Positions 6,086 through 36,420 of a stretch of DNA of 64,000 nucleotides are shown here, in pieces; the first letter of the stretch is position 1; each line of letters starts with the position of its first letter. This stretch comes from Somniosus microcephalus (taxonomy: Eukaryota): NCBI GenBank assembly GCA_052327205.1, contig CM126234.1, forward strand, positions 29,698,001 to 29,762,000, given 5' to 3'. The notes below the pieces were generated by a model. The model was not told the DNA's origin and made no database searches. It worked only from the letters and a program-made list of their open reading frames with translations. The translations under genes were made by a program, and so were the position numbers.

Positions 6086-6164
6086 TGCGAATGGGGACGT
6101 GCTAGCCACTATGATGCTGACCCTAGACTCGCCAGCTTTGAAAAGAGGCCGACCGGCGTTTTGT

Positions 6165-10008: not shown

Positions 10009-10680
10009 ATGCCAGATAACGGCACCGAGGAGGCTGGCCCCAGTACAGATGATATTTGCCGCGACTTCCTGCGCAACGTCTGCAACCGCGGTAAGCGCTG
10101 CAAGTTCCGCCACCCAGACGCTAATGAGATGTCCACCCTTGGCCTTTTATCTTCTGATCTACCCGTTAATAAAGGTGAGATTCCGATCTGCCACGACTAT
10201 CAGAAGGGTGACTGTCAAAGAGGGCCCAAATGTAAGTTCCTGCACGTAAAGCGCGACGAGTATGGTTATGAAAACCAAGGTATGGCGCACAGCCAGGTGT
10301 TTTCCCCCTTGGCACGCAGATATGATCGCTATGATGACCTCTACTCTAGAGGTTATGATGCTGACCACTACGATGGCTACGACACCCACCTGAAGAGGAG
10401 AAGGATGGAGGGCATGGGGTTTGAAGTGTACGACTACGGCATGCAGAATTCAGGCGCAGCTGACTACCGGTTTCTGAAGGAAGAGAATCTCATGCTGCAA
10501 AAGCGCGTTGAGGATCTCCAAAAACAGGTGTCAAACCTGATGGCCACCAATGAGCTCCTCCTGGAGCAGAATGCAAATCTCCGCAACCAAGTGAAGATGG
10601 GAATGATGGCTCCCATGACCCCCATGACCTCTATGACCCCCACACCCAGTGCAGCAGCTGGGAGATTCGCCACCCAGTGA
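10009..10680 (+). CDS. ZC3H10: ZC3H10-like CCCH zinc-finger protein, copy A (two fingers, 223 aa)
   Basis: CRDFLRNVCNRGKRCKFRH (C-x7-C-x5-C-x3-H) matches ZC3H10 finger 1; second finger CHDYQKGDCQRGPKCKFLH; basic LKRRR motif; coiled coil EENLMLQKRVEDLQKQVSNLMATNELLLEQN typical of ZC3H10. Paralog or ortholog status unresolved. Confidence 0.93.
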   Translation: MPDNGTEEAGPSTDDICRDFLRNVCNRGKRCKFRHPDANEMSTLGLLSSDLPVNKGEIPICHDYQKGDCQRGPKCKFLHVKRDEYGYENQGMAHSQVFSPLARRYDRYDDLYSRGYDADHYDGYDTHLKRRRMEGMGFEVYDYGMQNSGAADYRFLKEENLMLQKRVEDLQKQVSNLMATNELLLEQNANLRNQVKMGMMAPMTPMTSMTPTPSAAAGRFATQ

Positions 10681-13600
10681 CATTCGAGTTGATCACCTGA
10701 AAGAGGTGTGACTCAACTCCTTAAATATTTGTTTGTCACTTCAGTATACTAATAAAGAAACCTATGTAGTTTGTCAGATCTGAGAAGGTTGTGCTGGGAC
10801 TCTGCTTTACAGATGCAAATTTACAATTGACCTATAAAAGACCACAAGCTCCATTAATACAAGGCAGTTTTACCATACCACTACCTTGAATTTATAAAAG
10901 TGGGGGGGGGGGGGGTGGAAAGGTGGTTATCAGTAGCGTGAGTACCTTCAGGTCAAGTTGCTGTGATACCCTTTCTAACATTGGGATGGGGGTGAAGTAA
11001 GAGAAAAATATAATAAAAAAAATTCTGATATTTGTTCATGATTATACTTGGCTTCCCTGTGGTGAACACTTAAGCCACTTTGTATAATTTGATTTTCTCT
11101 CTTCTTTCTCTTTCCCCTTGCGCCCACCCACCCTCCTCTCCCATTAAAAAAAAAAGTAATAATGGGAGCACCTTGAAAATATTTAACCAATATGTGGGGG
11201 GAAGTTGAGTTATAATCCAGTATTGGGTTTAGGCAATTTTCCAAGTGACCTATTGTGAAAATTTTAGGTCCATTGACTGGATTATGGCCATATATGCGCA
11301 GATTTGCGCGTCGCCTCTCACTGTTTCACGCATTTTGCTCCTCTGAAAACCTACTTGTGTTGCAAGACTTAGACACATGCTCGATTTGTCTTTGGCAAAA
11401 CATAGTGGCAGAAACAGATGTGAATTAAGTGGCAAAATTGGCCACTAATTGAGCCACCTGTACTGCAAAGCTTTCCAGTGTGTCTGTGTGTATATTGTGA
11501 GATGCCTTGGTATGTGTTGCAAGCTGTAACAGTCTTGGGTGCTGAAGGACTGTCTAAGTCTAGATCAATTTTATTGTCCTGATTTATTTTGTCATCTAAA
11601 TGCGACTAATGGAGTACAGCCTTTAATATACCCTAATCATAATAAATGTAGCTGCCTCCTATGTATCTGTTATTCTGTATGTGACTGACTTTTGCGAGAA
11701 CTAAGTCAATCATTTGCAAGCCAGCTGACTCTTGACTCAATGTGGCTCTAAAGCCACAGGAAACGAGCATTTTTAATGCTGTGCGTACTGGGTATTGTTG
11801 GGTTGGTGGTCCTTTGGTCTATGGAAATCTGTATTGTAGTGGGGTTTTTTTTTTTTTGTTGCATTGGTGGGAACCCAGGACCACTGCATGATGCCTCATG
11901 CAGTTTTTCCTGTTACTTTTCTTGCATTGCTTTCTACTTTAAAACTCAATTTAAAATAGTTGAATGAGTGTAGTTATTAGTTGCCATGTTTTCATTGGAC
12001 TCCGGTGAACAGAGAATTCTGCCCGCTTTTAGTAATTCTCCAGCTACTGTGCATCAATTTTAACTTTTTCTCCTCGCTCTACTGTTCCTGTTGGAGGGCA
12101 GGCATTTTGGTCCCAAGCCTCTGAAAATCCTGATCTTGCACTGGCTATTGGTTGCAGAAAATAAAGCCTACATAACCTTCTGATTCTCTTCTCTTCCCCT
12201 GTTTGAAGAAACACCTGGTCTTCACTCAGCAGGTCCAACTGGGAATAGTGGACACAGACTAGCCCCTACTGCTACTGTATTTCTAATTCCCTCTTGTCCA
12301 CACACTTCCCCATCCCCTTTATATGCCTTCTCTCGAGCTCAAGGGATATAATTCAGCATTGTGTTGCAAAATGCAATTCAGTGCACTACCACTAGGTATT
12401 AGCGATGATGGCTATCAAGCTAATACTGCAGCTACCAGATACTTTTGGAATTCCTTTCTTATAATCCAGGAATAATATTAATTACTTTAGTTATAACTGG
12501 TACACAGGGATGGATGAATCGTAGTTCAGTGTACAGTAGAATCCTGTTTGTGGTAGGTGGGACAAGATAAAATAGCTTATTCATCAGACTTGCATAAAAG
12601 ACTGCTTAAGTCGGTAATGATTTGTAACAGCAGGACTTTGACAAGGATTTGCTTATTGTTGTATCTGATTTAAATTTGCATGGATTTGACTGTACAGCCC
12701 CCTTTCAGTTCCTTAAACCACAGTGCTTGAGCTTCATTGTTGCTCTTGTAGTTTTTTTTAGATTCTTGCACTGAAACATTGAGACTATTTATAGTCATAT
12801 CTGGCATCGGTGGTTTAGGATTCTGGTATCCATCTATCCCTTGTTCTGGTATTTTTACATACTACGGGAGTTTAGTTCTTTTCAAGTTAAAGCTTGGGGT
12901 CAGTATTTTAACAGTTAACAATTCCCCCTCTTCTCCCCCCCACCCCATATTTACCTACATTTTTGGGAACCACCCAAGCTAAAGTTAACTGTCTGTGGGG
13001 CAGGGGCAGTTATTTGTCTATAGATATTCATCAGTTATTGTTAACCCTTTCCAGTCAAGAAACCATACATGCGACAAACAATGGGTTTTTTTTCTGGTTA
13101 AAACTTCCAGACTAGAATGGTTGCACCTCGACGTGTTTAAAGATCTAGAAGGAAGGAAGCAAGCGGTCAGGTTTCTTGGAGTAGTAACACAGTGAGATTG
13201 TTTCTTCACAACATACACAGACCCAGTCATAATCATTCACACTCTTTTTGTACAAGGGAATTGTGATTGAAGTAGGTTTAATGTGGCCATAGTGAGGTCT
13301 GTGCACCTGGAGAATGTCGATGCTCCAGGACAACACATGGGATTATCTTTCAGTACTGCAATAGTTAATAGTGTTCTCCTTCTGTCTGCCATTGATTGGA
13401 ACTACATTTTTTGTTCCTTCAATTTGAATTCTGGCTTTTACTACTAGTCTTGCTAACTAGTTTTAATTTTTTATTTCAGAATTTAATGTTTTGATTTATT
13501 ACTATGCTACCAAAATACATTTTGTTTCCTACATTGGACTTAATTTGCAGTGAAGTGGTTATTAAAATGGAGCAATGAACACTTCAGTTGTCTATCTGGG

Positions 13601-13889
13601 CATGCCAATAAAATGGGAAACCATCACTGCTATAGTTGCATCTTATGGGCTGGAAAGGTTTAATGGTACAGTATATGTATAATGTGTATATATTGATTGC
13701 TACATAGTTCTTTGCTATGGTTAATGCTTTTCTATGCGATTACATGTAGAATGTTCTTTCCCATGATTAATCGTTCCACTGATGCAGACCTCCAGGACAG
13801 CAGAACCTATACAGTCCTAAACTAAGTGTACTTTGTTTAATTGTAGACCTTTTAAAGCAAAAATGTGTTCACCTTCATTTCTATGGAAG

Positions 13890-13950
13890 TCTGTTGAGTG
13901 TATAACAATAAAGCAAATTTTCATTTGTGTATTGTTTTGTATTCCTTGTG
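13890..13950 (+). terminator. Distal polyadenylation site of copy A
   Basis: TGTA upstream, AATAAA at 13907-13912, GT/T-rich downstream; context conserved at 39341. Additional AATAAA at 10751, 11641 and 13607. Confidence 0.75.
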
Positions 13951-13984
13951 TTTATAGTGCACACTTAAATAGATTGCCTGTTTT

Positions 13985-14080
13985 GGGACTAGATGGTGCA
14001 ATGAGTTAAAACACTATCCTTTACCTCTAGGACATGAGTTTAAACTCAACTCGGCCTAAGCTAACGATATTAGAAAGTGG
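13985..14080 (+). repeat. LF-SINE-like tRNA-derived head, degraded
   Basis: GGGACTAGATGG...CCTTTACCTCTAGG...GTTTAAACTC resembles the LF-SINE 5' end as I recall it. Confidence 0.4.
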
Positions 14081-14844
14081 TTCTGAACATATGGAGGTGC
14101 TAGCTCCTATTGGTAAACCTGCCAGTTTATGCTGTTGAGCTGTTTAACTAGCGGGAGGGAGAAAATGGCTGTGGCAGTGACTTAAGAAAGGGCTGCCACC
14201 TACTTTCCACCTTCCCTGCTACCTCTACCCTGACTGCAGTCAGTGATTTGATATATTTTTGTGACCTACCTAGGATGTCGTCATCTGTTATTTTTAAAAC
14301 ATAGGTTTTAACATACATGGTTTTAAAAAAAAATGAAACTATATGAAGAGATGTTCAGGAAGGTCCTATCTTGAAAAAGCATGGAACAGAAGCAGGTGAG
14401 TTGCCTGTTCTTAGCCTGTGAATTTAAACTGGGGCAGTATCTTAAATATAAGTTCTATTTATTCAAATACAGGTTGCGCCAGAGGACTAGAAGATCGCAA
14501 ATGTGATTCCATTATTGTAAAAAAAAAAAAAATACATGTTCAGCCACTCGATGCAGGAGGATTCACCGTGAAATATGATCTGGTCCTTTCTTGACATCTA
14601 TATACTCACTTCTAGCAGGGGTCATGGGATAGTGCTCGGGAGTGGGAACCCTGGCTTTTCTTTGCCCTTGCCTGGGATGCTGAGGCCAATTGGGGAGGGC
14701 CTGCACTCTATCTAAAATGAGCGAACTCCGTATGGCCTGAGCCTCTTACCTGGGATCTCCGTAGTCTATATGGCTCCATAGATAAACTAGTTGAATTATC
14801 GGGGAGCCTGATTGTAACCTTTATTAAAAACATAATAAGGGAAT

Positions 14845-15827
14845 ATGACAAGGTTCCCCTTGTCCTCACCTTTCATCCCACCAGCCTCCACATTCAACGG
14901 ATCATCCTCCGCCATTTCCGCTACCTCCAAAGTGATCCCACCACCAAACGCATCTTCCCCTCCCCTTTTAGCATTCTGTAGGGACCGCTCCCTCCAAGAC
15001 ACCCTAGTCCACTCCTCTATCACCCCAAACAGCCCTTCCCCTTCGCCTGGCACCTTCCCGTGCAAGTGCAGGAGATGTAACACCTGCGCCTATACCTTCC
15101 CACTGTCCAGGGCCCCAAACACACCTTCCAGGTGAAACAGCGATTTACTTGTACTTCTTGCAATCTAGTATACTGTATTCGCTGCTCACGATGCGGTCTC
15201 CTCTACATTGGGGAGACCAAACGCAGATTGGGTGACCGCTTTGCGGAACACCTCCGTTCAGTCCGTAAGGGTGACCCAGAGCTTCCGGTCGCCTGTCATT
15301 TTAATTCACCGCTCCATTCCCACTCTGACCTCACCGTCCTTGGCCTCTTGTATTGTTCCACGGAAGCTCAACGTAAACTCGAGGAACTGCACCTCTTCTG
15401 ATTAGGCACTTTGCAGCCTTCCGGACTCAATATAGAGTTCAACAATTTCAGATCATAACCTCGGCCCCTATTACTTTTTTACTTATTTTTTCCACCCCTT
15501 TGTTTTGGGTCCTCCTTTTCTCTTCCCCCCCCCCCCCCCCCCCCCCCCTTTTTCCTTTTGTTTCTCTCTCCCACCTGGCAGCTGTCTCTTATCCTGCCAG
15601 TACACTTCACACCTAATCTCAGCTGTCTTTTGTCTCCACTGGCCTATTACCATCTCGTCTGGTTTCGAATACCTTTTTATTGTCTCTTTTACTTTTGTTT
15701 GATCGCAGCCCTGCCTTCGATCTATTTTCTTTCCAGTTTTGAAGAAGGGTTTTGACCCGAAACGTCAACTCAAATTTCTCCACGGATGTTGCCTGACCTG
15801 AGTTTTTCCAGCATTTTCTGTTGTTAT
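14845..15827 (+). mobile_element. Penelope-like element 3' portion (GIY-YIG endonuclease, frameshifted) with terminal repeat
   Basis: FPCKCRRCNTC, then FTCTSCNLVYCIRCSRCGLLYIGETKRRLGDRFAEH...VACHFN, which is the Penelope GIY-YIG domain. Confidence 0.9.
15735..15770 (+). ncRNA. Minimal type I hammerhead ribozyme of the Penelope element (core C3 changed to T)
   Basis: AGTT-[T]TGAAGA-A-GGGT-TTTG-ACCC-GAAAC-GTC-AACT: stem I AGTT/AACT, stem II GGGT/ACCC, GAAA core, palindromic ACGT stem III. Confidence 0.7.
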
Positions 15828-16218
15828 ATGGGAATTTAAGCCCTGTTAGCTATTTTCCCAATTATACATGCTAATCTGAGTTTTATCTTAAGGGAAGAAA
15901 TTTAGTAGCAATAAATCTCTAGGCAGACAGGTTTGTAAAAAGGTAGATCATGCCTGGTAAATTTGTTGTAATTTCTTTCAGTGGGTAGCAGAAGGTTTGG
16001 ATATTTGACTTGTGGAAAGCATTTGAGACATCAGAGAAGCCTTGATGCTAAGGGCAGTGTTAAGTAATGGGTGGTGCAGTAGGTTAGATACAGCCTTTTT
16101 ATCTGTGGGACTTGGGCTGCTTGACTGAAGTCCCTTCGAGCTGCTGGGTGTGAGGGTCAGTTACGAATTTTTTGTTGTGGGTGTCGCTGGCAAGGCTAGC
16201 ATTTATTGCCCATCCTTG

Positions 16219-17205
16219 CATAGAATATACAGCACAGAAACAGGCCATTTGGTCCAACTAGTCTGTGCTGGTGTTTATGCTCCACACTAGTCTCCTCCCA
16301 TTCCATCTACCTCATCTCAGCCTTTCAGCATATTTTTCTATTCCCTTTTATCTCCTGTACTTGTCTAGTTTCCATTTGAAAGCAACTAAGCTATTTGCCT
16401 CAAGCACTTCCTGTGGTAGTGAGTTCCACATTCTAACCACTCAAATTTCTCCTTATTTCCCTATTGGATTTATTAGTAACTATCTTGTATTTATGGATTC
16501 TTCCACAAGTGGAAACATTCTCTCCACAGTTACCCTGTCCAGCCCATTCATAATTTTAAAGACCTCTATATCAGGACTTCTCTTTTCTAAAGAAAAGAAA
16601 AGCCCCAACCTGTTCCAATTTTTCCCTATAGCTGTAATCTCTCTGTTGTGGTACCATCCTTGTAATTCTTTTTTGCACTTTCTCCAGTGCTTCTATGTCC
16701 TTTTGTTATAGTGTGGAGACCAGAACTATGCACACTACAGCTTGACCAGGGTCATAAACAAGTTTAACATAACTTCACTACTTTTGAATTCTATACCCCA
16801 TGAAATAAATCCCAGTGCTTTGTCGGCATTTTTAATTGGGTTGCTGCTTTTAATGATTTGTTCACTATCCCTAGATCCCTTTGCTCTTCTACCCCATTCA
16901 GCTTCTTATTTTCTAAGGTGTAGGTGATGTTTCTTGTTTTCCTACCAAAGTGCATCACCTCGCGTTTATTTGTTAAAGTTCATTTGCCACTTGACTGCAA
17001 GTTTTCTAATGTCTTGTATTATGGTTCCGTGTTAGCTATACTACCCTTTGTATCATCTGCAAATTTTGACAGTTACTTATTCATATTCCAAATCATTAAT
17101 GTGAATTATGAATAACAGTGGTCCAAACCCTTATCTTTGTGGAACACTGCTTTCTAGTTTCATACAATCTGAATAACTACCCTTTACCCCATCACTCTGC
17201 TTTCT
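16219..17205 (-). mobile_element. Degraded CR1 LINE
   Basis: CR1 3' end (CATAGAATATACAGCACAGAAACAGGCC) and decayed RT words (TCATCTGCAAA, the FADD motif on -). Confidence 0.8.
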
Positions 17206-18719
17206 TGAGAATGGGGGTAAAGGGTAGTTGTCCTGAGATGTTAACTGAGTGCCCTGCCCGGCCACTTTGGAGGGCAGTTAAGAGTCAACTATGTTGGTGT
17301 GGGACTGGAGTCACATAGGCCAGACCGGGTAAGGATGACCAGTTTCTTTCAAAGGCCATTAATAAACCAGTTGGGTTTTTACAGCTATCTGACAATTTCA
17401 TACCAACTTTTAATTTCTAGATTTTCTAAAACTGAATTTAAATTTTCAGTGCCATGGTGGGATTTGAATTCTAATTCTCTAGATTATTAGTTCAGGCCTC
17501 TGTATTTCTAGTCCAGTAATATAATCACTATGCTATTGTACCCACTTTATGAAATTAATATCAGTAGTCTGCTACCAATTTGCAGCAGGAGTAGACCCAC
17601 AGCATAACCTGCCCCAAATTCAGCACTTAAATGAATAATCTCAGAGGCTACAGGATGTCTGGTGTGGGAGATGGAAAATGTTACGCTGGTACAGTCAAGG
17701 GTACTAAAGATTGCTTTGGACAGAGAAGGGGGAGCTTTGCTCTATCTCACCATGCTGTATCTGACCTGGAAGTGCTCAATGAACTGAAATGGAAAGTTAC
17801 ATTCCCCAGCACACATCCCTCATCTTGATGAGCACAAAACTCACAATCAATAAATAAAATAGGAACGTTTGTAAAACAGCAAGTGCCGCTGTAGTTAACA
17901 TTTCTGAATGGAATTTTTCGAACAAAACCAAAGAAGCGGAGTAATATTAACTGGGTGACCGGATGTGTGTGATAGAAATTGCTTGAGCGGGTCCTGTTCA
18001 TGTAGCTGAACCAGTGTTTTTTTGCTCCTCCTTTCAGTGTACTGAGAGTTACACAAAAAGGTGGAATACAGTTCAGTTTCTAATTTCATTTTGACATGCA
18101 TAGCAGAAATGTATGTGTATGTAGTGTCATAAATTGCTAATGGCAATCCAGCTATTGATGCTGTGCCACAGACGGGTAAGATGTGGGATCGTCTGCTCCA
18201 ACTTTGCTTTTTCAACTTGGGAAGTTTTTCTTGGCAACTGAAAAGTGGCTCCCTTTTTCTCCTTGCCTCTAAACGTTTGCTAGGTTGCAGTTCTACAAGT
18301 GGCAATCGCCTTTCAATACATCTCCCAAGTGGTGCGCGACTCAACAGTGGCCTGTAAACCTCAGTTGCTGATTGGATAAACTTACTTGACCAATGGGAAA
18401 TCAAAAAATGGCTGTTGCCTGGCATCAAAATAAGAGTTTGGAAGAATATGAAGCTTGTTTCCATTGCTCCAGCTCTTGTTCTAAAATATTAGTGTTAATC
18501 GGCACCAAGGACTACATTACTGCTGAAGCCTTAAAAGTTCTCTGATGGGAAGGGCATAGGTGTCTTGGGCTTCTTCCTACTGCTGATGCAGGAATTGCTG
18601 ACCTTAACCTGTAGCTTAGCCTGCAGTTGCCCCTCCTGATTCCAGGTAGGTCCATGAGTTGGAGGGTGATACCTCTACTCTGGCTGGCCAGTAACAGTTG
18701 ATGTTGGTATGGTCCAAAA

Positions 18720-19600
18720 TTCACCATTTCTGAGTTTTCCAGCTGAAGATACTTGTGGTTGGGCAGTCATCACATCTACAGAGCATCACTGCAAGAGTTC
18801 TTGAGTGAAGTGTCCTCGGCCCAATTATCTTCAGCTGCTTAATCAATTACCTTCCCTCAGTTAAGGCCAGGAGTGGAGTTGTTTGCTGATTATTGCAATG
18901 TTCAGCTCCATTCAGAGCTCCTGATAATGAAGTAGCCCATGCCAGCCTACAGATAATATCTAGGTGTAGGCTGACAAGTGGTAGGTAATGGCCATCTTAA
19001 CCAGAGAAGCCTTGCCTTATCCCCCTGACCGCCAATGATATTGGCCTAGTCACCTATCATGAACATCTTGGTGTCATTGTTGACCAGAAGCTGAAGTAGA
19101 CCAGTTATAGTTGCAAGAGTGGCTAACCACCTGACCACTCAAAGCCTCGCCACCATCTACAAGGCCCAAGTCAGGCATGTGATGGAATACTCGCCACTGG
19201 GTGATAATGATAGGTCTAGCCGCAATAAAGTTCGCACCATCCACCACAGCAGTTCATTTAATCGGTGCCCTTGCCACTGCTCTCTATATTCACCACTGGC
19301 TGCAGTATGTACGATCTACAGGAGGCACTGAACACCTCCCTCCCCTGGCACCTCCACCAATGAAAAGGATAAGAACATCAATGTAATGGAGATAACATTC
19401 ACTTTCAAGTTCCCCTCCAAGATGCGCACTAGTCTGACTTGGACATGTATTGTCTCTGGGTCCACATCCTGGAATTTCCTATGTAACATTGTGGGAGATT
19501 TAATACCGCAAGCATTGCAGCAGTTCAAGGCGGCCCACCACCTCCGGGCAACTAGCGATGGGCAATAAATGCTACTGTACTAGCGTTGCCCATAATTACA
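18720..19600 (+). mobile_element. Degraded non-LTR retrotransposon (RT C-terminus and 3' tail)
   Basis: LATIYKAQVRHVMEYSPL. The tail GATGGGCAATAAATGCT is also seen at ~27720 (+) and ~16200 (-). Probably the same family as 63510-64000. Confidence 0.7.
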
Positions 19601-20227
19601 CTTTTTTTAAAAATTAAAGCATTTTAGGAAACCACTGTAGCATCTAGTTCTGAAAGCTGTTGACCATCCACCTTCTAAGGTAAAACAGATTTTGGTGTGG
19701 AGGCAATGAGGCTCTCGTTTATATAAAAAGAACACATACAGGTATACATTTATTGAGCAACCAAGGTGAAGGGTAGTTGAATCCACTTGTTGGCGAGGAA
19801 AAGAGTCAATAAGTAGTGATTAGGTTGATACCAAGCTTGGGATTTAAAAGCCTTTAGATGTAAGAAAAAGGAACAAATGTGGCCCTGGGAAGGAATGAGG
19901 AGCCTTGATGTGCAGGGTTACATCAATGGAACAAGCGATGAAGGTGAAAGTAGTAAGATTATGACAACAAAATAAAGTAACTGAAGAGACCAGAAGGAAC
20001 TTTTTATAAAGAAGATTTTCATTGCTCCATTAAAGAATATGAAGATCAAGATATAGTGGTTGCGCAATGAGGACATGCATCTGAAAGAAGTTGAGTGTTG
20101 AATGGAATATTCAGTCATGGATAAGATTGAATGTTGAGTGGAAGAGGCCTTTAATGTGGGGGGAAGAGAGTGGGAGGGGAAAAAAGGTTTAAATCACTGA
20201 AGATATGAAACTAGTAAGGCAGTAAGA

Positions 20228-21408
20228 GAAACATAGAAGATGGGAGTAGGCCATTCAGCCCCTCGAGCCTGCTCCGCCATTTAATGAGATCATGGCTGAT
20301 CATCCAAATTCAGTACCCTGTCCCTGCTTTCTCCCCATATCCCTTGATCCCTTTAGCCTTAAGAAATATATCTAACTCCTTCTTGAATATATTTAATGAA
20401 TTGGCCTCCACTGCCTTCTGTGGTAGAGAATTCCACAGGTTCACCACTCTCTGGGTGAAGAAATTCCTCCTCATCTCAGTCCTAAATGGCTTACCCCGTG
20501 TCCTTAGACTGTGACCCCTGGTTCTGGACTCCCCCGCCATTGGGAACATCCTGCATCTAGTCTGTCTAGTCCTGTTAGAATTTTATAAGTTTCAATGAGA
20601 TCCCCTCTCATTCTTCTAAACTCTAGTGAATATAAGCCTAATCGACCCAATCTCTCCTCGTACGTCATTTCTGCCATCCCAGGTATCAGTCTGGTGAATC
20701 TTCGCTGCAATCTCTTCATGGCAAGAACATCCTTCCTCAGATAAGGCGACCAAAACTGCACACAATAGTCAAGGTGTGGCCTCACCAAGGCCCTGTACAA
20801 CTGCAGCAAGACATCCTTGCTCCTGTACTCGAATCCTCTCGCTATGAAGGCCAGCATACTATTTGCCGCCTTAACCGCCTGCTGCACCTGCATGCTTACC
20901 TTCAGCGACTGGTGCACAAGGACACCAAGGTCTCGTTGCACTTCCCCTTCTCCCAATCTATTGCCGTTCAGATAATCTGTCTTCCTGTTTTTGCCACCAA
21001 AGTGGATAATCTCCCATTTATCCACATTATACTGCATCTGCCCAATTGCCCAACCTGTCCAAATCGTACTGGAGTTTCTCTGCATCCTCCTCACAGCACA
21101 CACGCCCACCCAGCTTTGTGTTGTCTGCAAACTTGGAGATATTATATCGAGTTCCCTCATCTAGATCATTAATATATATTGTGAATAGCTGGGGTCCTAG
21201 CACCGATCCCTGCGGTACCCCACTAGTCACTGCCTGCCACTCGGAAAAAGACCCGTTTATTCCAACTCTGCTTCCTGTCTGCCAACCAGTTCTCTATCCA
21301 AGTCAGTACCTTACCCCCAATCCCATGTGCTTTAACTTTGCACGCCAATCTCTTATGCGGGACCTTATCGAAAGCCTTCTGAAAGTCCAAATACACCACA
21401 TCCACTGT
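20228..21408 (-). mobile_element. CR1 LINE, 5'-truncated
   Basis: [37 protein letters not shown] and KFADNTK RT motifs, with frameshifts. Confidence 0.95.
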
Positions 21409-22970
21409 GGTGTATAACCTTGTATGTTAGATTAGTTGGAGGAACGAGAGAAAATATACTGAACAATTTTGTTTTTGTGTAGCATTAGGTTGTATATTTT
21501 CATTTGCTTTGTACTCCAGTGAAGTTTCTTTCTACAGAGGAAGGAAGAAACTGGAAAACTACGCGTCAAGCCCTTCTTGGATATCAAAAATGTTGATGTT
21601 CCTCTGAAACCTATTATGTTTTTGCATGCAATCCTCTCCTATGAGAGTCTGTTGCGCTGCTGCTTCTAAACAATTTTCCAGTGTATAGGCTCTTCTGATG
21701 GCCACAGTTTTGCTAATCTCTGTTACATTCAACCAGAGCTAGGTTTGAAGCCATAGGGAGCAAGGAGTTGGTGTCATTGGTCCAGAAGCTTGAATCTTGA
21801 GTTTAGTTGTTGCCTTTTGAAGTAGACATTGGGGTCTTCAAGTCTAAGTTCCTGGTGAGAAATACAGCAGACCGTGGTCAAGTTTTCAGCTGTGAGATGG
21901 AAGTATAGAAAACGGGAGTGTTTTTTTGTGTTTCTGCATTATTTTTCTATACCCTTCCTCTCCTGAATGTGAGCTTAGGCATGTGTTGATCAGCTATTGA
22001 ATCATGAGGGCATCGCCTGTTCTTGTATGCTTACAGTAGATGACAATCGGGAGTGGAAACCCAGATCAGATTTTAATTTCCCTAGCCTGAGAACTGGGGC
22101 TCATGTTAGCACCTGCAGCGGCACAGCAACAGAGATTGGTTAGGATTGCAACATTTTGGAAAATCTAAGACTGGACAGGCTAAAAGTGGGATCCTGGCTC
22201 GAGTTCTTATGTTTGTTTTGCTGCTGATAAATTCATTGAAAATCTTAGTAACCATAATAACTAATGCCTCCACATCAGAAGACACGCATGAGTAAAAGTA
22301 GGGGACTGTGCAATGAGTCTTGATTTTAACACTTTGGGGATGCAAGGCGGGGAAGAACATGTAGAACGGAGTATCTGACTGTAGAATTAAGTTGCGAGGC
22401 ATACTGACCATATCAATAAAATAGAGAAAGGTAAGGAAACTTGCAACAGAGAGGGTGAGATTGGAGGCTACAGGTGAGAGTGAGATCACCTATCCAATGA
22501 CCATCTTCAGACTTTTTAAACCTAAGCTTAGTATCAACTCATCACTACCCCCTGATTTAGCTCGATTTTTCTTTACAACCTTGCTGGTAGCCCCAGTTTG
22601 GTCTTGGCCCCTTTACTGTAGTTTCTCATTTTAGAAAAAGTAATGGGGGGGGGGGGGGGGGGTGGAATTGACTTTGACCTCAAGTTTTCACTTTTAGAAA
22701 GCACCAGAAACACCATTCAAAAAATGGATCGGTCTAAAACCTAGGTGAAGTATTGGAGGGTGCTCCCTGCTCATAGAACCATCCCCCAATGAATCAGCTT
22801 TAGAAGAGAAGGGAAGAAAATTGAGTTTTTAACTTTTACCTTCAAAATTCACATATCTTGGTGCTTCTATTTAGCTGCATAATTTTTAATTGTTTTTGAA
22901 TTCACAAAGAAATTACATACTTTGCATAAAATATAAGATTTTAAATTAATGGTGAGTGATTTTAACAGTT

Positions 22971-23330
22971 TCTTGTGGTTGGGAGGAGCTCGTTAATGCC
23001 ATTTGTGAAATTACCTTTGACTGGGAGGACCTCCATTGAGCCTCTTCGTGTTGGAGCATCTTCGAGTTGGAGCTACGAGGGAAGGAGCTGAGCTATGTTG
23101 GTAATCCCATCCCTGGTTTGTTAATGTTAAAGTTCTGGGCTCTGGGATTATTTTAAGATTTTATTGTACACACACTGAATGCAATAAGTGTGGGTTAGTT
23201 TGGCTGGCAGTCACTTTAATTTGTAGCAGGAAGTCGAAGACTTAAAAGGCCTGGGAGAATGCTGGAGCGGTTCCTTGTACAGTATGTAAAGTGGAACGAC
23301 TGGTGCTGCAATCACCCAGGCTCATTGGAA
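22971..23330 (+). promoter_or_regulatory. Paralogous upstream block of ZC3H10-like copy B
   Basis: Aligns with 7838-8230 (TTGACTGGGAGGACCT, CCCATCCCTGGTTTGT, TTTAATTTGTA.CAGGAAGTCGA). Confidence 0.65.
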
Positions 23331-24550: not shown

Positions 24551-24569
24551 TAACCGATGACCCTAACTA

Positions 24570-25570: not shown

Positions 25571-26099
25571 CGATTGTCACTGCATAGCCATTTTTTCACA
25601 TCTCTTGCACAAAATGCTGCACCTTGCATATACTTTCTTGGTGGGCCTCATACTTTCCATCGTGAAGAGCTTATCTTTCAGCTTTCTCCAACTGCATTTT
25701 TCTCATGCGCAGCAACACAATTAACTTTATTTTCTGCAGAATCTGCAATGTTCTCACTTAGTATACGTCTGATGCTTCTTCTACTAATACCAATTTTACC
25801 AGTTCTGTTGCAGGTCTCCTGGTACCAATTTTAGCATCTCCATTCATACTGATCATGTCTTGCCATTGCTAGTAGGTGCTCGTGGTAAGTTGGAGAAGCC
25901 ACCAAGGTTTTCAGACAGATAAGTCCTTGTTTATAGACAGACCCAGAATGCCAAACAACTTTTGTAGTCTGTGGGTGTTGATGATATTTGATAGTGTGAT
26001 GATTTAAGCTTGGGGAGAGAGCGTAGGAAGGGAGCCCACCCCATTAGTTGGCATGATAAAACTCATCCATCATGGAGGGAGTACTCTCCAACAGTCTCA

Positions 26100-27230: not shown

Positions 27231-30194
27231 AACTTGCATCATTGAACAGCTAAAGCAGGGAAGGAAACCCAAAATGACGGGTCTTGAAGCTGCTGCAACA
27301 AAATTGAACAGAAATTATTTTTTCTCCACCCTCCCAACAGATTTTTCTTTGCCTTCAGCATATATACTGTGGGACATGGGTTAATCTAGGTTTAGGAAAT
27401 ACCAAGGTTATAACAGTGAATAATTCAGATAATTAAATTCTAATGTCATATGATATTCAGCTCAGCAGTTATATAAGCAGGGTATGCTGGGAGGTCCAGC
27501 CAGTTCAGTTAAGTGGTGTTTGGATAAGGGGTGTCCCTTGGTACAGACAGTAATTTAAAAAAAATGAAATTGCTAATTTGAAAGGTATTTAAAGTTGCTA
27601 CTCTTTCGAGCACTGTGTAGTGCTTTTTACTAATAGAAACTAAAGCGTAGGAGTATTTAAAAAAAACAAACAAACCCTGCATAAACTGGAAGACTACAGT
27701 GCCCTTCTCCAGGGCAATTAGGGATGGGCAATAAATGCTGGTCTTGCCAACAACGCCCACATGACTGAATTTTTTTTTTAAAGTGCCCACCTTTTAGTGT
27801 CTTGCATCTGAAAGACAAGTTAGCTTGTAACAGGGCCTGGCATATGAGATTCACTGCAAATGCAGGCTTGATGACTTGAAACACTGATATTTAACTGAGG
27901 TGAGTCTTGGAAATTAGAGGATGGATTACCTTGCAAAAACAGATGGAAAAACTATCTTCTGCTAAGCCCATTCACTTTGAATGAGGCATCAGATAGGAAG
28001 GGATGGTGTACCAATATAATGTGCCATGAAATGATGGAACTTTGGTTCATGCATAGGGCCCCCACAATGAAGATTTCTAAATTAATGCCCCTTTATGTAC
28101 AGAAGCACTTCACGTAGAAGTGGTTTTCTAATATGTTGAGGCTGCTAGTACTGTAGTGGCAACACAAAAACTGTCTTGAAATCCTAATTGCAGCTTGGAT
28201 GCCAAATCTTTTCCAGTGGTTCCCGGTCTCGGAAGGAAAATCGGAAGTGCAGATCAATCTGTACGCACACTTCCTAGTATTTGGTCAGAGAGCTATGTTT
28301 GGCAGTGATTCATCCAGCTTTTTGACCATTGAATGCAGAGCAATTCTGGCTGACACCCCACCCCCATCCCCTTGCTAGCTGATGGAGATGCAGCTAGTTG
28401 TAGTGCTCTCTCTACCAGTCTAATTGATTGACTAACAGTACAAACCAGGGGTAAATCTACTTCCTGGCCTGTAAAGCTTAGTGCAATACTATACTGTGTA
28501 TTTACTCACTTGGGAGCTGCTATTGTGTCTGAAGTTACATTCTGGCAATTTATATTTCAGACCTTAAGAAAACTTTTCACACAAATTTGGATAGGTTTGA
28601 TTATCAATTTATATCTTAAAAGTATTTTTAATATAACATTTTTAGGTCTGGTTTCACTTCGTACGTTGAGCTGCAGGCACAAGTCAATTGAAACAAAATC
28701 GTTCAACACGTGGCGCAATATTGTGGGTAGATTGGGAAAGGAAGTTTCAATACATTGGTAGGGGTAGGCCAGATTTTTCTTCTCCTGTAGCAGAGAGAAA
28801 TCCTGCGAGTTTACATTTTATTGAACTATACCTTTTTTTAATTGGAACATATTCTAGACTTTGTTCATAGGACAGCTGCACAGTTTGACGAGTCTGTCTC
28901 ATTCAGCATCATTGCACACAGTAGGAATAAGTCCAGATTATCAACCAAGGAAAACGATTATGGATATACATTTTAAGAAAATGTTGGCACCTGCTTCAGG
29001 AATACCATGCTTGAGATGCTCTTTTCCTGTACTGTATAAGGGCGTCTTCTTCCCATTACTAATGTGCCAGTTATTTTTCATTGTTGCACAGAGTGGTGCT
29101 GCTGTTCAGTAGGGCTGAATTCTTCATCTTTGGATTTTCCCTCTTGCAAAACTGTTTTCACTTTGACCGAGAATGTCTCCTTGCACTAAGTATTTTGTGA
29201 AATGTGATCAGGTATTTATGATGGCCACTCCTCATGCTTGCAGCGCTTATTGTTGAAATACCATAAAACGAACCGTCATTATGTACCATGTGTTTGTGTT
29301 TCCATACAAAACAACGGCATATTAATATTGTGCTGTCATGTATTACGCTTTGTTCTGCTTGCTGTGGAAAATGTATGCATCAAATGAATGATGTCACTAT
29401 AGGGTACTGGAAGGGCAAAGCTCATGGGCAACATCATCAAAGTGAAACGTCCGAAGGGATTGTGTCCATGTAGGTAACCTGGACTCACTCCTGAGGTATA
29501 TGAAGGATACTTTTATTTGAAGAATGAGAAAGACCATACAATGTAGGTAATGTTACTTCTTTGATTATATTCTGGATTGTGCCATACTATGTTTCAAGTG
29601 GATTATTAACGCTGTATGTTACACACCTAGGTGGTATAACATGCCTTTTTATTACTATAAAAATTAGGTCCAATGGAGCATCCCCAGAGCAGTTCTCAGA
29701 ACTCTGTAATAAAAAAGTAAGTGGATTTTTCAGTTTTGTGGCTCTGCATTCAAGTCGCTAAGCGGTTCATATGCTTATGTCTCATTCAACCTTTATTTTG
29801 ATTATTCTGGTCACCTTGCTTTTTGATTCTGGTTTGCCTAGCTGGCGCAGAATGAGGAATACTGGCAACAGGTGGTGAGTCCTACAGGTTCTTAAACTGT
29901 CTAGAATGCTGTGTTGCTTTGTCATTAAAAAATATAGTGTGACTTAAGCAAATTCTGTTTAAAAAGAAAATGTGGTTGATATATTTTACAAATTTGATAG
30001 TTTGTGTTTATAGTAGTACATATGATTATTATTGATTCTGCAAATTCCAATATCGCCAGTCATTTAAAAAACATATCACTGTATTTCAACCAAATTTCAG
30101 AAGCATTCTCTTGTCCTCAAGTGCTGTGTTCCTTCAAATAATGGGCCTGTTTGGAACTCTAGAATTCTCCAAATTGCATCTCTTCAGTAACCGA

Positions 30195-31035
30195 TGGCGA
30201 AAGACTACAGGAGGACATAGGCTAAAAGATGGGCAGACAAGTGGCAGATGCAGTTTAGTGTAGAAAAATATGAAATATTACATACTGAAACTAAGAATAG
30301 GGGAAAGGAAATACACCGTAAATATTAAAATTCAAAAGGGAGTAGAGGAGCAATGGGACCTTGATTGTGTGAATACATAAGTCATTGAAGGTGGCAGTGC
30401 AAGTGAATAAGGCCTTAAAAGGGCAAACAATCCTTGGGTTTTTTTTATCTAGAGGTACAGAGTTTAGAGAGTGATGTTGAACTTGTACAAGGCCTCAGTC
30501 AGGCTGCAGCTGGAGTATTCTGTACAATTATGGACATCCTGTTAGAGGAAGGATATGAAAGCAATGGAAAAGGTGCAGCGTAGATTCACTAGAATGTTAC
30601 CAGGGCTGAGGAGATACGGTTATCAAGAGAGACTTGAGAAGTTAAAGCTGTTTTTCACAAGTTGAGAAAATTAAGGGGTAACCTGATAAGAGGTCATCAA
30701 GATTATGACGGTAATGGGAGAGCACAAAGTTAAGATAATCACAGAAATAAAGAGGGGGTTGAAACATTTCAGTGTAGTTAGAATGTTGAATTTTCTGCCA
30801 CAGTCTATTGTTGAAGCAGAGTACATAAATTGTTTTAAAAGAAAATGAGATCGTTGCTTGAAAAAGGGGAATATTAAAAGGTGATATGGGGTGCAAGCAG
30901 GCGAGTGGGATTAAGCTCGGTGAGATATTAAAGGGTTTGGAGAACGAGCAAGAAAGTGGGATTAGACTAGGTGGCTTGAGAAAAACGTGGGCGCAGACTT
31001 GATGGAACAAATGGCCTGTTTCTGTGCTGATTCTA
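30195..31035 (+). mobile_element. Degraded CR1 LINE 3' fragment
   Basis: Decayed WADKWQMQF, LYKASVRLQLEYS and KVQRRFTRM words; CR1 3' end ATGGCCTGTTTCTGTGCTG. Confidence 0.8.
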
Positions 31036-32228
31036 TAGGCAAACACCTGGAATTTCTTTTGCACCAGTTTATCACCAAAGTAACAAAACTTCAAACTTGC
31101 TGAGAGATTTTTAGCAGACTCTTGGCTCCTTCTGATACTAGGCAAGCTGGAAGGTGCACATGCTGCATTTGTGTATCAAAAACACTAAAGTAAGTTGAGG
31201 ATTTCAGTATTAACAACAAAATAATCATGGTGTAAACTTTCCATTTGTGCATGATTACTAGCATAACCCACAAGGCATTACTCAGAACTATATGTATATT
31301 TGGCATGTTACCAAAACAGGGCTGAAATATTCCACATACTGACTAGCCTGAGACAAATTACTTACCAGCTTTGGTGAGCTGAATACTCAGCAGCTTGCAA
31401 ATAATTCTGCTCTTGTTTTTCTCTCAGTACACCTGATCCTTTATGGCCAGTTGCAGCTTTTTGCCTTCCATAAAAACATATGGGACTTTGTCTCATCGGA
31501 CGCTGGTGGGTTCCTTTTAGTATTATTTACATTGAAAGCCATACTTGATGCTGTAATAGACACTGACTAATGATCTCAAGGAGTTAACATTTTTTACTTT
31601 TGTCAAAATGCAATTTCCAATACAAGTGAACATAATACAAGTGTTGAATTGTGTCTTTGTGCTTAATAACATAACCTCCTAAGCAGTCTACCAAATCTGT
31701 GGTCTCATTTTTTTGGCATCCCATTTGAGCGAGATCAATCTGTCATAAGCTCTCATTTGAATCCCTGCTTGCATTTGCGCTAAATTTTTGCGCTAACGTA
31801 GCAAACGGAGAAAAATGCATCTAATTCTAGCCAGCTCCTCTGCTGCTGATTGCTGCCTTCATTGCCGCTTGTGCATGGTGTTCGTGGGGCTCCTTCAGAT
31901 TCTTGTTATGAAAAGCCTTAAGCCTGGCTCCCAGTGTTACTAGAAACTACCCTCCCTGCCAATTGCCACTGTCCTGTGCCTTTTATTTGCTGTATGATGT
32001 TCACTTCAGCCTTTGAACATCAGTTACTAACTTTCTTCAAGGATAAAGATGCTAGCTTTAAATATGCATCTGGCGCATAATGGGAAACTTTCAGACTCTC
32101 ACTGGTATGAAACCTGCAGGAAGAGAGCAGTTGAGGAGGATTTTCATAATGCTGAATTTTTGGAGTTGCGGCTTTTATTTCACGATCATACTGCTACTTA
32201 TACTGGATGCAATGCTTTTTTTTCTGGT

Positions 32229-32545
32229 GGCAAACAACTAACAGATCTGTGTCCGTGACTATAAGCAAAATCAGTGCCAGTTCTGGATAGCACTAGCCAT
32301 GCGCAAAAAAAAAAAAATGGAATAATTATAGCAATATCTTGGCAAGCAACCAACTAACAGATCTGTGCCAGTTCTGGATAGCACTAGCCATGCGCAAAAA
32401 AAAAATGGAATAATTATAGCAATATCCTGGCAAGCAACCAACAGATCTGTGTCAGCGGCTATGAGCAAGAGCAGTGCCAGTTCTGGAGATAGCACGAGTC
32501 ATGCGCAAAATAAAAATGGAATAATTATAGCAATATCCTGGCAGC
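32229..32545 (+). repeat. Three-copy tandem repeat (~85-110 bp units)
   Basis: Core GTGCCAGTTCTGGATAGCACTAGCCATGCGC(A)nTGGAATAATTATAGCAATATC[CT]TGGCA three times, each preceded by AACAGATCTGTG. Confidence 0.9.
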
Positions 32546-33097
32546 TATGAGATCGAGTCCCTTCTATAAACATGCTTGCTAATCCACCAGTTATTGGCAA
32601 AATAAAAGCAATACCTTAGTCCAGTGGTGTCGGTGTTTGAGTGACCTCACAAGACAGTTTACTGTGTGTTATTTCTGAGTGAGTGAGTAAGTGCCTGGTC
32701 AGATCACTCAAGACATTTACACCACTGGCACTGAAATATGAGAGTAAGTTCAGTGCTCTCGGCAGGGGACCACGTTCAAAAGAAGCGCAGGTTGCAGCTG
32801 TATAGTACTGATTCTTGAACCTAAGCTTCCTTGGAACAGGAGGTTGTGAATTTATCCCATGGTTTTTATGTGCAATAAATCAAGACACATGTGAATGTTA
32901 ATGCATTTATTTCTATTTGGATTATCACCATATATAATCTGCAATAAGATATGCTGCTGCCCTGAAACATGCTCCACAGAGTGCTGGTCTGGGTAATTTA
33001 CAGAAACTTGGTGATTTCTTATTGTTTCACGACCTTTCTTTTGCTGTTGGGTTGTTCTGGCACTGCAGGTGATCAAATCATGTGACATGGTGGGCCC

Positions 33098-33512
33098 ATG
33101 AGTCAGAGGTTGTGGGTTTGAGCCCCACTCTCTGGCTTGAGCACATAATCTAATCTGACACTTTAGTGCAGTGCTGAGGGAGTGCTACATTGTCAGAAAT
33201 GGCATCGTTTGGATGAGATAAACTGAGGCCACAGCTGCCTGTTCAAGCGGGTGTAAACGACTCTATTGCATAATTTGAAGAGATGGGGATTTATCCCAGT
33301 GTCGTGGCCAACATTTATCCCTCATCAAACACCACCAAAAACAGATTATCTGGCCATTTGCTGTTTGTGAGACTTTGCTGTGCGCAAATTGGCTGCAGTG
33401 TTTGCCTACAAAACAACAGTGACTACAACTTCAAAAGCAATTCATTGGCTGTAAAGCGCTTTGGGACATCCTGAAAGCATGAAAAGCGCTATATAAATGC
33501 AAGTTTTCTTTC
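33098..33512 (+). mobile_element. SacSINE1-like (Deu-domain) SINE
   Basis: Collinear with the full copy at 61776-62277; tail GCGCTATATAAATGCAAG. Confidence 0.85.
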
Positions 33513-35527
33513 AATGGTGTTATATCACATGATTTGGAGAATTATTTCACCAACCAGGTTACAGGAGAATATTGTTGCTTCTGTGTATATTGTGATATTT
33601 TACACACTTTGTGTCAGATGATAAGAATAATTGTCATTTTTTCAACTGAGAAATAAAAGGAAAATCAACTTTTCAACTTAAAATATCACGATCACAGTGT
33701 ATCGAAATGTCCGCCTGCAGAAAGGGGTCAACGCCTCCTGCTGCTTTCCCAGTTCCACGTACAGGCATTTATCATTCACTCAGGTCACCAAAGTTTAAAC
33801 AATTTAAATAACTACTCTTAAAAATGATGATAGGTATAAGACAATAATTCAATTGAGCAGATCTTCTGTTATAATAAACCAGCAGAGATAATGTAAGAGT
33901 TGTTGACTGCCAGAAGAACCCCCAAGGTTGAGTGGAAGTCTTAAAGTTGTCATCAATTCTTTGCAGTAACTCCTCATAACTGAGTGACACAGTGCATTGG
34001 TATCATCTATGAGGCACTGCCTCTGGACAGCCATGCAAGCCACAAACCTCTTACCTTGGAGTTGAGAGATGGAGGTGGTATGGTCTAGGTGAAAATATAA
34101 TGCCACTGCATTGTACAGAGGAACAGTAGGTAATGAATTTAGTCCCATGTTTTTTGAGGTGTTTTCCTTACAGAGAGGCGTGAGAGCTATCCTTCTCTGT
34201 GAGGAAATGGTGCATGGGGGAGGGAGAAAGGAAATCAAATTGGTGATGACATAGGACCTAGAATTAGATGGCTTTGTTCAAAAGATTCCATTATAATTAT
34301 TATTTTTGTGTGTTTTGCAGTTTCCATCTCGGCTGCATGCCCTCTGTTACCTCAAACTGGGAAAACAGTTCAAATTGCAGCCTTAATTATTAATAGTTTG
34401 TCTTCCTCTGGGTGCTGTGTTGTGGCCCGTTTTGAGGGTAAGCTGTGAATCTTTCCCATACTTCTTAAGTGCGCCTCCTGGCGGCTCCACTGAAGAATGG
34501 CATTGATTCTGCTGATAAAGTAGTGCATAGGCTTGATCCTCCAAACTCCAAGAGAATAACATGCTCAGCGGAGGAGAAGGAACACCGTCCAAAATACATC
34601 TCTATAAATAGGGCAGTGTGTCATTTTTAGTTGATAGAGAAGTGTTTTTACTTTTTTCATACTTTCAGGCTGCCTAGGCTAACCACATCCTTTTACGTTT
34701 TCAGCCTGTATATTATGATGCTGAACCAAACCCTAATATTACAATAATAAGGATAATTAAATGTCATTTTATGAACTTAGAAAAATAAATGCCTAAAACA
34801 ATTTAAAATAAAATATTTATAAAAAAAAACTTCTGCCCAACCTGTCTTTGATTTTTAGCTCCTTTTTTTCTTTGACCCTTTCTCCCTCAGTCTGCTATTT
34901 TCATTATTTTTATTTGAATTATTTTTCCATCTAATCCAACCCAATCTTAAAAATGAAAGTATTGCGCTTAAAACGTATTTAACTTCTGTCTCACACAGAA
35001 TCACAGAAACCCCACAGTGCAGATAGAGGCCATTTCCTGGGTCTCGCCACCCGCTTGGGAAGTGGGAGCCAAATCCCAATAAAATGGTCCTTGGCTAAGA
35101 ACAGGATTCAGTGGCTGTTTTTTCAGCCAGTTGAGGGTCATAAATATCACCATGTGCATTTTTGCTACAATTTTCTTGTGTCAAATACAGGAGCCCACTG
35201 CTCGATTAAATTATACCAACAGCTGGGAAGTGAGATCACACCCTGATGAGACAACTTGGCACCACACAAAATGGCTAATATTGACGTTATTGAAGCCTCA
35301 TGCAAACACCTTTCTTAATGCTATCGCTTTTACAAAACAAGGCAACTAATATACATAAAAAGAGTGCTTACAATTTGGTAGGAGATCTTTCACACTCTTG
35401 GGATAAACTTGTCACCCACTCCTCGTTGTGTATCCTCGATTAAGTCACCTTTGGGTGGGATTTTTTGGGGGTGGAGCGAAGATGACCCACGCTTACTTTG
35501 TGGTCGGTCCCTTTTTCTCTGACATGA

Positions 35528-35580
35528 TTCATTCTTCTTTTGCAGTTGTTTGTTGAGCAGCGCAGAAATAATCGGTAAAA
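35528..35580 (+). other. Splice acceptor (AG 35544-35545) and 5'UTR part of the coding exon, copy B
   Basis: TTCTTCTTTTGCAG|TTG, homologous to the copy A acceptor; contains GCAGCGC at 35557-35563. Confidence 0.8.
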
Positions 35581-36420
35581 ATGGCAGACAATAATGTTGT
35601 TAACAATGGCAAAGACGGGGCTGGCCAGAGCACGGAAGACGTTTGCCGGGACTACCTGCGCAATGTCTGCTATCGCGGCAAGACCTGCAAGTACCTCCAC
35701 CCGGACATAAATGAGGTACATGACCTAGGCGTGAAAAAGAATGAGTTTGTCTTCTGTCATTACTTTATGAATAATGTTTGTACCCGTGCAAAGTGCACAT
35801 TCATACACGGGACAGCAGAGGATGAGGAATACTACAAAAAAACAGGGGAGCTTCCCCTGCACTTGCGCTCCAAGGTGGCTGAAACCTACGGTCTGTCAGT
35901 TTCTGACCTACCTGCTGATAAAGGTGAGATTCCAGTATGCCGTGACTACCTTAAAGGTGACTGTCAAAGAGGCTCAAAATGTAGATTCCGGCACTTCAAA
36001 CGTGACAATTCAGAACATGAAATCAGACTGTCACGAGACCCCCCACTTTCTCAGCCATTGCGTAAATCTGATCGAGTGGATAATGACAGTGGCATCAATT
36101 GTTATGAGTATGACCACCGCTTGAAGAGGAGAAAGTTGGAAGGGTTTGAGTTTGAAGTGTACGAGTACGATCTCACAAGTCGACGGCCAGTTGACTCCGG
36201 ATACCTGGAGGAGGAGAACCTTATGCTGCGAAACCGGAATGAGGAACTCAAAAAGCAGGTGTCCAATTTGATGGGCAACAATGAGGTGCTTCTGGAGCAG
36301 AATGCGTTTCTCCGCAACCAAATAAAGACAGCAATGGTGAACTCCTTGCCCACAACGACAACTGGGAGATTCAGCCACTGCACTTCCCCAGGGGTTAAGA
36401 CCAGGGGACTTTGGGAGTAA
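35581..36420 (+). CDS. ZC3H10: ZC3H10-like CCCH zinc-finger protein, copy B (three fingers, 279 aa)
   Basis: Three CCCH fingers with ZC3H10 linkers (LGVKKNEFVFCH, EDEEYYKKTGELP, DLP..KGEIPVCRDYLKGDCQRG); LKRRK; coiled coil LEEENLMLRNRNEELKKQVSNLMGNNEVLLEQN. Confidence 0.95.
   Translation: MADNNVVNNGKDGAGQSTEDVCRDYLRNVCYRGKTCKYLHPDINEVHDLGVKKNEFVFCHYFMNNVCTRAKCTFIHGTAEDEEYYKKTGELPLHLRSKVAETYGLSVSDLPADKGEIPVCRDYLKGDCQRGSKCRFRHFKRDNSEHEIRLSRDPPLSQPLRKSDRVDNDSGINCYEYDHRLKRRKLEGFEFEVYEYDLTSRRPVDSGYLEEENLMLRNRNEELKKQVSNLMGNNEVLLEQNAFLRNQIKTAMVNSLPTTTTGRFSHCTSPGVKTRGLWE

Follow-up and report, generated by a model that had tools for sequence, protein, structure and literature searches.

We found two intact ZC3H10-like open reading frames (ORFs), named A and B here, on the + strand of a 64,000-nucleotide stretch of the Somniosus microcephalus genome (contig CM126234.1, positions 29,698,001 to 29,762,000; this whole stretch is called the window below). 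A and B are very probably alternative last exons, each of which contains a whole ORF and is spliced from shared upstream non-coding exons. The best explanation of the results as a whole, and a likely one, is that an ancient ZC3H10 cluster of cartilaginous fishes forms one multi-ORF transcription unit. An earlier note, which was made from the sequence alone, had described the locus as a tandem pair of genes with different finger counts. The two copies and their different finger counts stand, but the idea of a two-gene pair does not, because the first exons are shared and the family has four members (A, B, C, and D).

Splicing was judged from the assembled contigs of four runs from four organisms (X4, X12, X17, and X21; 4 of the 23 candidate runs) on positions 7400-14600. 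Contig depth, which was higher for A than for B, C, and D, is not usable to rank expression. The exons and exon candidates are as follows (UTR, untranslated region; aa, amino acids).

243-275, + strand: P1, the 3′ end of an upstream non-coding exon (ends at 269), followed by a GT donor (270); lies in a CpG island
7792-8020 (start approximate), + strand: P2, a second non-coding first exon, with alternative donors after 7968, 7987, and 8020
8021-8519, + strand: extension of P2, continuing into C-type sequence in run X4 (one run only)
9961-13930, + strand: terminal exon A, with acceptor at 9960, the ORF, a 3′ UTR of about 3.2 kb, and AATAAA at 13907
22967-23250, + strand: P3, a paralogue of the P2 region found by self-comparison (71% identical), whose GT donor at 23101 is intact; may be a first exon private to B
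29668-29716, + strand: small exon candidate with a GTAAGT donor and an acceptor placed by eye; from its ATG, B would be extended in frame by 26 aa
35546-39365 (end approximate), + strand: terminal exon B, with acceptor at 35545, the ORF, the 3′ UTR, and AATAAA at 39341

Both ORFs have a pyrimidine tract and an AG upstream. In all four runs, A begins at the acceptor (9961) and is joined to an upstream exon, and contig cover stops at 13848-13929. Joints from P2 to A (7968, 7987, or 8020 to 9961) were found in X4, X17, and X21, and the main contig of X21 has the splice from 8020. A second contig of X21 joins 7968 to the initial 12 letters of exon B and goes on into B coding sequence, with a 27.6-kb intron that skips A. 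At this P2-to-B joint, the donor (7969-7970) reads GC in the window, and X4 and X17 have GT there. The match of X21 to P2 is not explained by P3, because P3 differs too much there. A single upstream sequence stands before A as well as B in X12, with a unique exact match at 243-267 and an exon end at 269. The B contig of X12 (1936 nt) starts with the end of P1 and the B contig of X21 starts with P2; in each of these two runs, the A and B contigs share their first 30 letters, the pattern that a fork in the assembly would give. The upstream exon used is P1 in X12, which has almost no cover on P2, and P2 in the other three runs. B-type contigs, read through loose ends, were present in X4, X12, and X21.

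In addition, a 1924-nt contig of X4 matches 7940-8519 at about 94%, continues with 121 unplaced letters, and then enters C-type coding sequence. If the splicing is in cis, this contig places C downstream of the window. Shared-exon links were thus seen for B in at least two of the four runs and for C in at least one, and C belongs, with fair probability, to the same transcription unit as A and B. A, B, and C also lie on contigs of equal length in several species. Furthermore, part of the source naming fits this, with B entered as "isoform X1" and A as "isoform X2" in Chiloscyllium punctatum. From exon position and CpG content, we infer that P1 and P2 are active as promoters. The CpG island upstream of P1 (window 1-130) contains two CGCCAT-type motifs in opposite orientation, which we take to be YY1-like.

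The homology is not confined to the coding exons. Besides the likeness of P2 and P3, the 3′ ends of A and B are 77% identical in patches (13640-13804 and 38937-39101; also 13008-13062 and 38118-38174). Thus, the duplicated unit comprised a first exon, a coding exon, and a 3′ end. Self-comparison found no third paralogue of the first exon or of the 3′ end in the window. As the copies are ancient, these patches are candidate conserved 3′ UTR elements.

The features of the two ORFs are listed below.

10009-10680, + strand: ORF A, 223 aa, intact
10057-10113, + strand: finger 1 of A
about 10138-10146, + strand: deletion junction within the 25-aa linker of A
10189-10245, + strand: finger 3 of A
10393-10404, + strand: KRRR motif of A
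10474-10593, + strand: zipper of A, followed by a short tail
35581-36420, + strand: ORF B, 279 aa, intact, with KRRK motif, zipper, and short tail
35644-35700, 35755-35808, and 35938-35994, + strand: the three fingers of B
35731-35892, + strand: finger 2 of B and the two helices after it (79-88 and 93-102 by prediction), 54 aa in all, absent from A
36238-36240, + strand: Asn220 in the zipper of B

The likeness of A and B is not due to chance, since the tblastn match between them has an E value of about 1e-50 and no third ZC3H10 copy appears among the tblastn matches in the window. CCCH motifs start at Cys17 and Cys61 in A and at Cys22, Cys59, and Cys120 in B. Residues V51-G104 of B (54 aa, 162 nt) have no counterpart in A at the protein or DNA level, and the loss is in frame. 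The motif positions and both alignments therefore confirm the finger counts and the clean 54-aa loss claimed in the earlier note. The same applies to its claim of intact ORFs with a basic KRR motif and a coiled coil in both copies, for which AlphaFold predicts a single long helix per copy (A 148-198, B 206-254). The note had also stated that LG flanks the lost segment in mammalian ZC3H10. This was right for the one mammalian protein and the full-length shark protein compared, while the right end in B is YG. The segment ends in B DNA share only GG, and LG at both ends in C and the mammal would allow a few bases; a microhomology-mediated origin of the deletion is plausible. Loss of finger 2 by splicing-out was rejected for B, which has no AG at the right end of the segment.

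One point is missing from the earlier note, namely that B is not the canonical three-finger protein. After the zipper anchor, A and B have 31 and 34 aa, against 149 aa in the canonical shark protein (C), and tblastn found no remnant of the long tail in the window. In mouse, p38 phosphorylates a Ser-Pro site of ZC3H10. This site is present in 14 of 14 C sequences, in none of 14 A, and in none of 16 B. With both the tail and the site gone, B, like A, is not canonical ZC3H10, and the full-length form is C. It should be noted that a Ser-Pro site at that offset (S126) is found in only 67 of 152 other three-finger homologues and so is not universal.

Copy A is supported as a real, expressed, and conserved protein under purifying selection. 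The 90% cluster of its nearest match has 13 members (10 of them named) from sharks and rays, and the chimaera Callorhinchus milii has a 215-aa A form with the identical deletion junction. The 25-residue linker of A is identical in all 12 non-chimaera sequences examined, and 22 of its 25 positions are kept in the chimaera. Over the core columns shared by all forms, A is 94.2-98.8% identical to three elasmobranchs and 76.2% to the chimaera. The values for C are 95.3-95.9% and 74.3%, and those for B and D are 87.3-91.6% and 68-79%. The chimaera and elasmobranch lineages split about 400 million years ago. Between A and B, the nonsynonymous (dN) and synonymous (dS) divergences are 0.21 and 0.76, a ratio of 0.27 (139 codons). 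In addition, a spliced contig of X21 that spans the deletion junction has one difference from the window in 1979 letters. The earlier note had left room for A being silent, free of constraint, broken in related species, or misassembled. None of this was found, as A is spliced in four of four runs, has a dN/dS of 0.27 against B, is intact in sharks, rays, and chimaera, and agrees with the assembly in a spliced contig.

Outside the window, C (about 400 aa) has three fingers and the full tail and occurs in sharks, rays, and chimaera, on contigs equal in length to those of A and B. D (about 290-330 aa) has two fingers and a tail and lies on contigs other than those of A, B, and C. A further form, X, is found in the chimaera; it has 248 aa and two fingers, and the accessions of chimaera A, X, and C are consecutive, with X in the middle. 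B was not found in the chimaera among the matches listed. The homologue searches took the best 120 matches each, within length limits, and the top matches of A and B were all named ZC3H10 or ZC3H10-like. Among 309 homologues compared, 241 had at least three fingers, 39 had fingers 1 and 3 only, and 29 were fragments or other forms. All named two-finger proteins among them are chondrichthyan except a pigeon gene model that retains half of finger 2, and one two-finger chimaera entry resembles a gapped model of C.

The tree on core columns grouped the family with jawed-vertebrate ZC3H10 against invertebrate outgroups (support 100/99). A, B, and D each formed a clade (D 98/97), and X joined A (94/94), but the branching order among A-D was not settled by the tree. 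Approximately unbiased (AU) topology tests did not reject A, X, and D as one clade, which would give the two-finger forms a single origin (p-AU 0.093), A, X, and B (0.36), or X and B (0.35). Judging from these sequences, finger 2 may have been lost once to three times in the family. The linker of D is 25 residues long, like that of A, in the majority of named sharks and rays; Heptranchias has 27, the chimaera 31, and others 20-23.

Several further proteins of the family were observed. In Heptranchias perlo, a 548-aa ZC3H10-like protein (P0256) has six fingers, with finger 1 repeated four times, and lies on a contig equal in length to those of the A, B, and C of this species; thus, finger number varies upward as well. 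Rhinoraja longicauda has two near-identical full-length C-type copies (P0125 and P0126) on contigs of one length. In carpet sharks, four 358-aa C "isoform X2" models (P0229, P0232, P0235, and P0237) begin in a different frame and have a join within finger 2, so that finger 3 alone is left, which suggests a splice within the C coding exon common to several of these sharks. Meanwhile, salamanders (P0046, P0167, P0195, and P0306) have extra three-finger copies, some with shortened tails, and the axolotl copies are at adjacent accessions; a parallel tandem expansion is possible.

When compared with known systems, A and B are like vertebrate ZC3H10 (PMC6911170, PMC13375009; three CCCH fingers, an NLS (nuclear localization signal), a coiled coil, and a proline-rich tail) in having fingers 1 and 3, an NLS-like motif, the zipper, and the whole ORF in one exon. 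They differ from it in that A lacks finger 2 and both lack the tail and the S126-Pro site; B has the three fingers of ZC3H10. The gene organization resembles that of ANG/RNASE4, whose two paralogues, in the accessible part of the description, have common 5′ UTRs, four exons, and two promoters (PMC12602997), and which is counted among 24 promoter-sharing human pairs by a second source, likewise accessible in part (PMC2568002). Both loci have tandem paralogous single-exon ORFs, each with its own acceptor and 3′ end, and the same non-coding 5′ exon is spliced to either ORF (P1 in X12, P2 in X21). Unlike ANG/RNASE4, our locus probably has three ORFs and has a third first-exon copy (P3) between ORFs, and its products are nuclear zipper proteins of different domain content that could act on each other.

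The fingers recall the tandem CCCH pairs of MBNL1/MBNL2, which have two finger pairs and no zipper. Residues 18-77 of B (fingers 1-2) match the MBNL finger pair as one stretch, though weakly (E 0.002). The best Foldseek match is to fingers 3-4 of MBNL1 and is also weak (E 0.006); no match reached E 0.001 in Foldseek. This MBNL-like pair is broken in A, where fingers 1 and 3 are separated by 25 residues against 18 in the native 1-2 pair. The AlphaFold models of A and B have a predicted template modelling score (pTM) of 0.27-0.28 and give no information on finger packing; that of A (0.27) shows two folded fingers with no confident packing. The zippers resemble those of bZIP factors in having Leu at d, Asn at several a positions, and a parallel in-register model. 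Unlike in bZIP factors, the KRR motif lies about 24 residues before the zipper and outside the predicted helix, and no bZIP family was found among Pfam matches to E 0.1. Some bZIP factors have truncated inhibitory partners, such as ICER and LIP.

To place the loss of finger 2, published domain data were used, as far as the sources were accessible. In human cells, deletion of zinc finger 2 or the R89A change within it abolishes repression of interferon-stimulated genes, and loss of the NLS or the coiled coil does the same (PMC13375009). Fingers 1 and 2 are reported as the pri-miRNA-binding fingers, and binding to the UCP1 promoter needs the zipper and not the fingers (PMC6911170). The domains of Zc3h10 are not mapped in the accessible part of a further paper (PMC7661038). 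B retains finger 2 with an equivalent of R89. In both copies, KRRR/KRRK aligns with the mapped NLS (205-213) and the zipper with residues 234-280. On the basis of these published data, A should be without finger-2 functions and should keep nuclear import and the zipper.

All six d positions (d1-d6) are Leu in the zippers of A and B. The a2 position is Val in 14 of 14 A, Val or Met in 14 of 14 C, and Asn in 16 of 16 B. In addition, A has a fixed change at two e positions (Gln for Arg/Lys, 14/14), and D has Ala at a3 (14/14). In paired zippers, Asn220 of B faces Val167 of A, and such a-a′ Asn-Val pairs of bZIP proteins are frequent among non-binders and rare among binders (PMC4335062, accessible part). 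Because of this mismatch, C, or A itself, is the likelier partner of A, and B of B. The zipper complex predicted for A and B scored 0.63 against 0.02 for the best of three controls, with contact agreement of at least 82% and a partner predicted local distance difference test (pLDDT) value of at least 68. Among microbial pairs, 51 of 78 solved and 2 of 108 mismatched ones attained the mark for this score; among eukaryotic pairs, 39 of 65 and 2 of 126 did. As close relatives and textbook folds can attain it through their likeness, the score indicates that a parallel in-register A-B zipper is possible, not that it is preferred.

These results bear on how A and B act. We consider it possible, though on the unlikely side, that the variants do not mix at all, each working on its own, as a homodimer or monomer, in a divided or novel role, so that the shared promoter merely co-ordinates expression. 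The divergence of the zippers (A at the two e positions, B at a2, D at a3) fits this idea. However, the a and d core of A equals that of C at most positions, and a count of g-e charges would put no clear barrier before A-C pairing.

The earlier note had proposed that A and B heterodimerise and that A is a dominant-negative partner of B. We regard this as less probable still. The high score of the predicted complex, the Leu at every d position of both zippers, and the presence of A and B sequences in the same runs speak for it, and a parallel zipper of the two is structurally possible. Nevertheless, the score cannot tell a heterodimer from a homodimer, and the invariant Asn of B opposes the Val of A. 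Furthermore, a pure dominant-negative role leaves unexplained the near-invariant two fingers and new linker of A, which are too conserved for a mere poison subunit. This near-invariance points to a ligand of A's own.

It is also quite unlikely that A and B are ordinary tandem genes with their own promoters and that the junctions with shared exons reflect minor read-through splicing of no regulatory importance. Three points speak for it: P3 has an intact donor upstream of B; the candidate exon at 29668-29716 ranks first (score 46, next 24) as a match for the extra N-terminal part of P0221, a B isoform model of the zebra shark, which thus uses a B-side exon at 29.7 kb; and chimaera A, X, and C bear no isoform labels. 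Against this, the shared exon is kept as the upstream link in B contigs of two species and through two different exons (P1 in X12, P2 in X21). Finally, decay of A or an assembly error has practically no chance of being the explanation, given the identical junction in sharks, rays, and chimaera, the spliced contig that crosses it, and the strong conservation of A.

Some points weigh against the reading of one transcription unit with selective pairing that we prefer. The junctions rest on assembled contigs and not on long reads, and those of B and P1 were read from 12-30 loose letters matched by hand. None of the four runs is recorded as RNA; X17 carries the flag "probably DNA" but has a GT-AG joint. 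B has P3 as a candidate private first exon and another candidate upstream exon at 29.7 kb. The link from P2 to C is one contig with its 121 unplaced letters, and the accession order C, A, B in two species would fit C upstream, while C, B, A in others would fit C downstream. The samples are bulk samples, so they give no proof of co-expression within one cell. In addition, the predicted A-B zipper attained the mark even with Asn opposite Val, and we found no paper showing dimerisation of ZC3H10.

With one transcription unit as the preferred reading, the history and working of the locus may be pictured as follows. The single coding exon of ZC3H10, with its acceptor, 3′ end, and first exon, would have been duplicated in tandem before the chimaera-elasmobranch split. 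Transcripts would start at P1 or P2 and be spliced to one terminal exon with its own poly(A) signal, which is A, B, or probably C, the last probably lying further downstream than B. The choice of acceptor and poly(A) site would then set the ratio of the variants. By sequence, these are modular. C combines three fingers with the tail and the p38 site. B also has three fingers but neither of the other two, and its zipper is re-keyed. A keeps fingers 1 and 3, is without the tail and the p38 site, and has a zipper compatible with that of C. A would lack the finger-2-dependent activities (pri-miRNA binding and repression at the interferon-stimulated response element) and keep nuclear import and the zipper. 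It would act as a dimer with its own two-finger specificity, and it may pair with C and so dampen or redirect C, while B would pair mostly with itself. We infer these roles of A, B, and C with considerable reserve.

The rest of the window is rich in remnants of LINE and SINE elements, and the DNA is that of an elasmobranch. LINE reverse-transcriptase remnants lie at 5265-6088, 20224-21407, and 54331-57902, with the longest ORF (397 aa) at 55850-57043 (- strand). Downstream of B, there are two long inverted-repeat elements (about 40090-41000 and 41100-41880, the second placed by eye), which are probably transposon-derived. ESYT1 is a neighbour gene of ZC3H10; in a check for this synteny, limited to the window, no match was found for the C2/SMP portion of P0191, a fused gene model.

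The proteins themselves are already in public annotation as "ZC3H10-like"; the architecture and its pattern are new, and the sequences are not. In listings and abstract openings of the open literature, we found no paper on ZC3H10 duplicates of cartilaginous fishes. In its fullest form, which we put forward only tentatively and hold to be rather improbable as a whole, our proposal is that, over some 400 million years, these fishes have retained a kit of three whole ZC3H10 proteins, selected by splicing from shared promoters, with an unlinked fourth; that finger number, phospho-site, tail, and zipper key are recombined among them; that the choice of last exon sets the dimers formed (A-A, A-C, B-B, and C-C) and the RNA or DNA bound; and that finger 2 was lost more than once.

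If this is true, the cluster would provide a deletion series, made by nature, for a protein that regulates thermogenesis, miRNA processing, and interferon genes. The accounts of ZC3H10 are hard to reconcile, as they include RNA binding by fingers 1-2, DNA binding by the zipper, and repression of interferon genes by all fingers and the zipper. Copy A is a natural and strongly conserved deletion of finger 2, which in one human assay leaves the protein inactive, and so it offers a test of which activities need finger 2 and of whether ZC3H10 dimerises. The locus would also add a vertebrate case in which whole paralogous ORFs that differ in domain content serve as alternative last exons.

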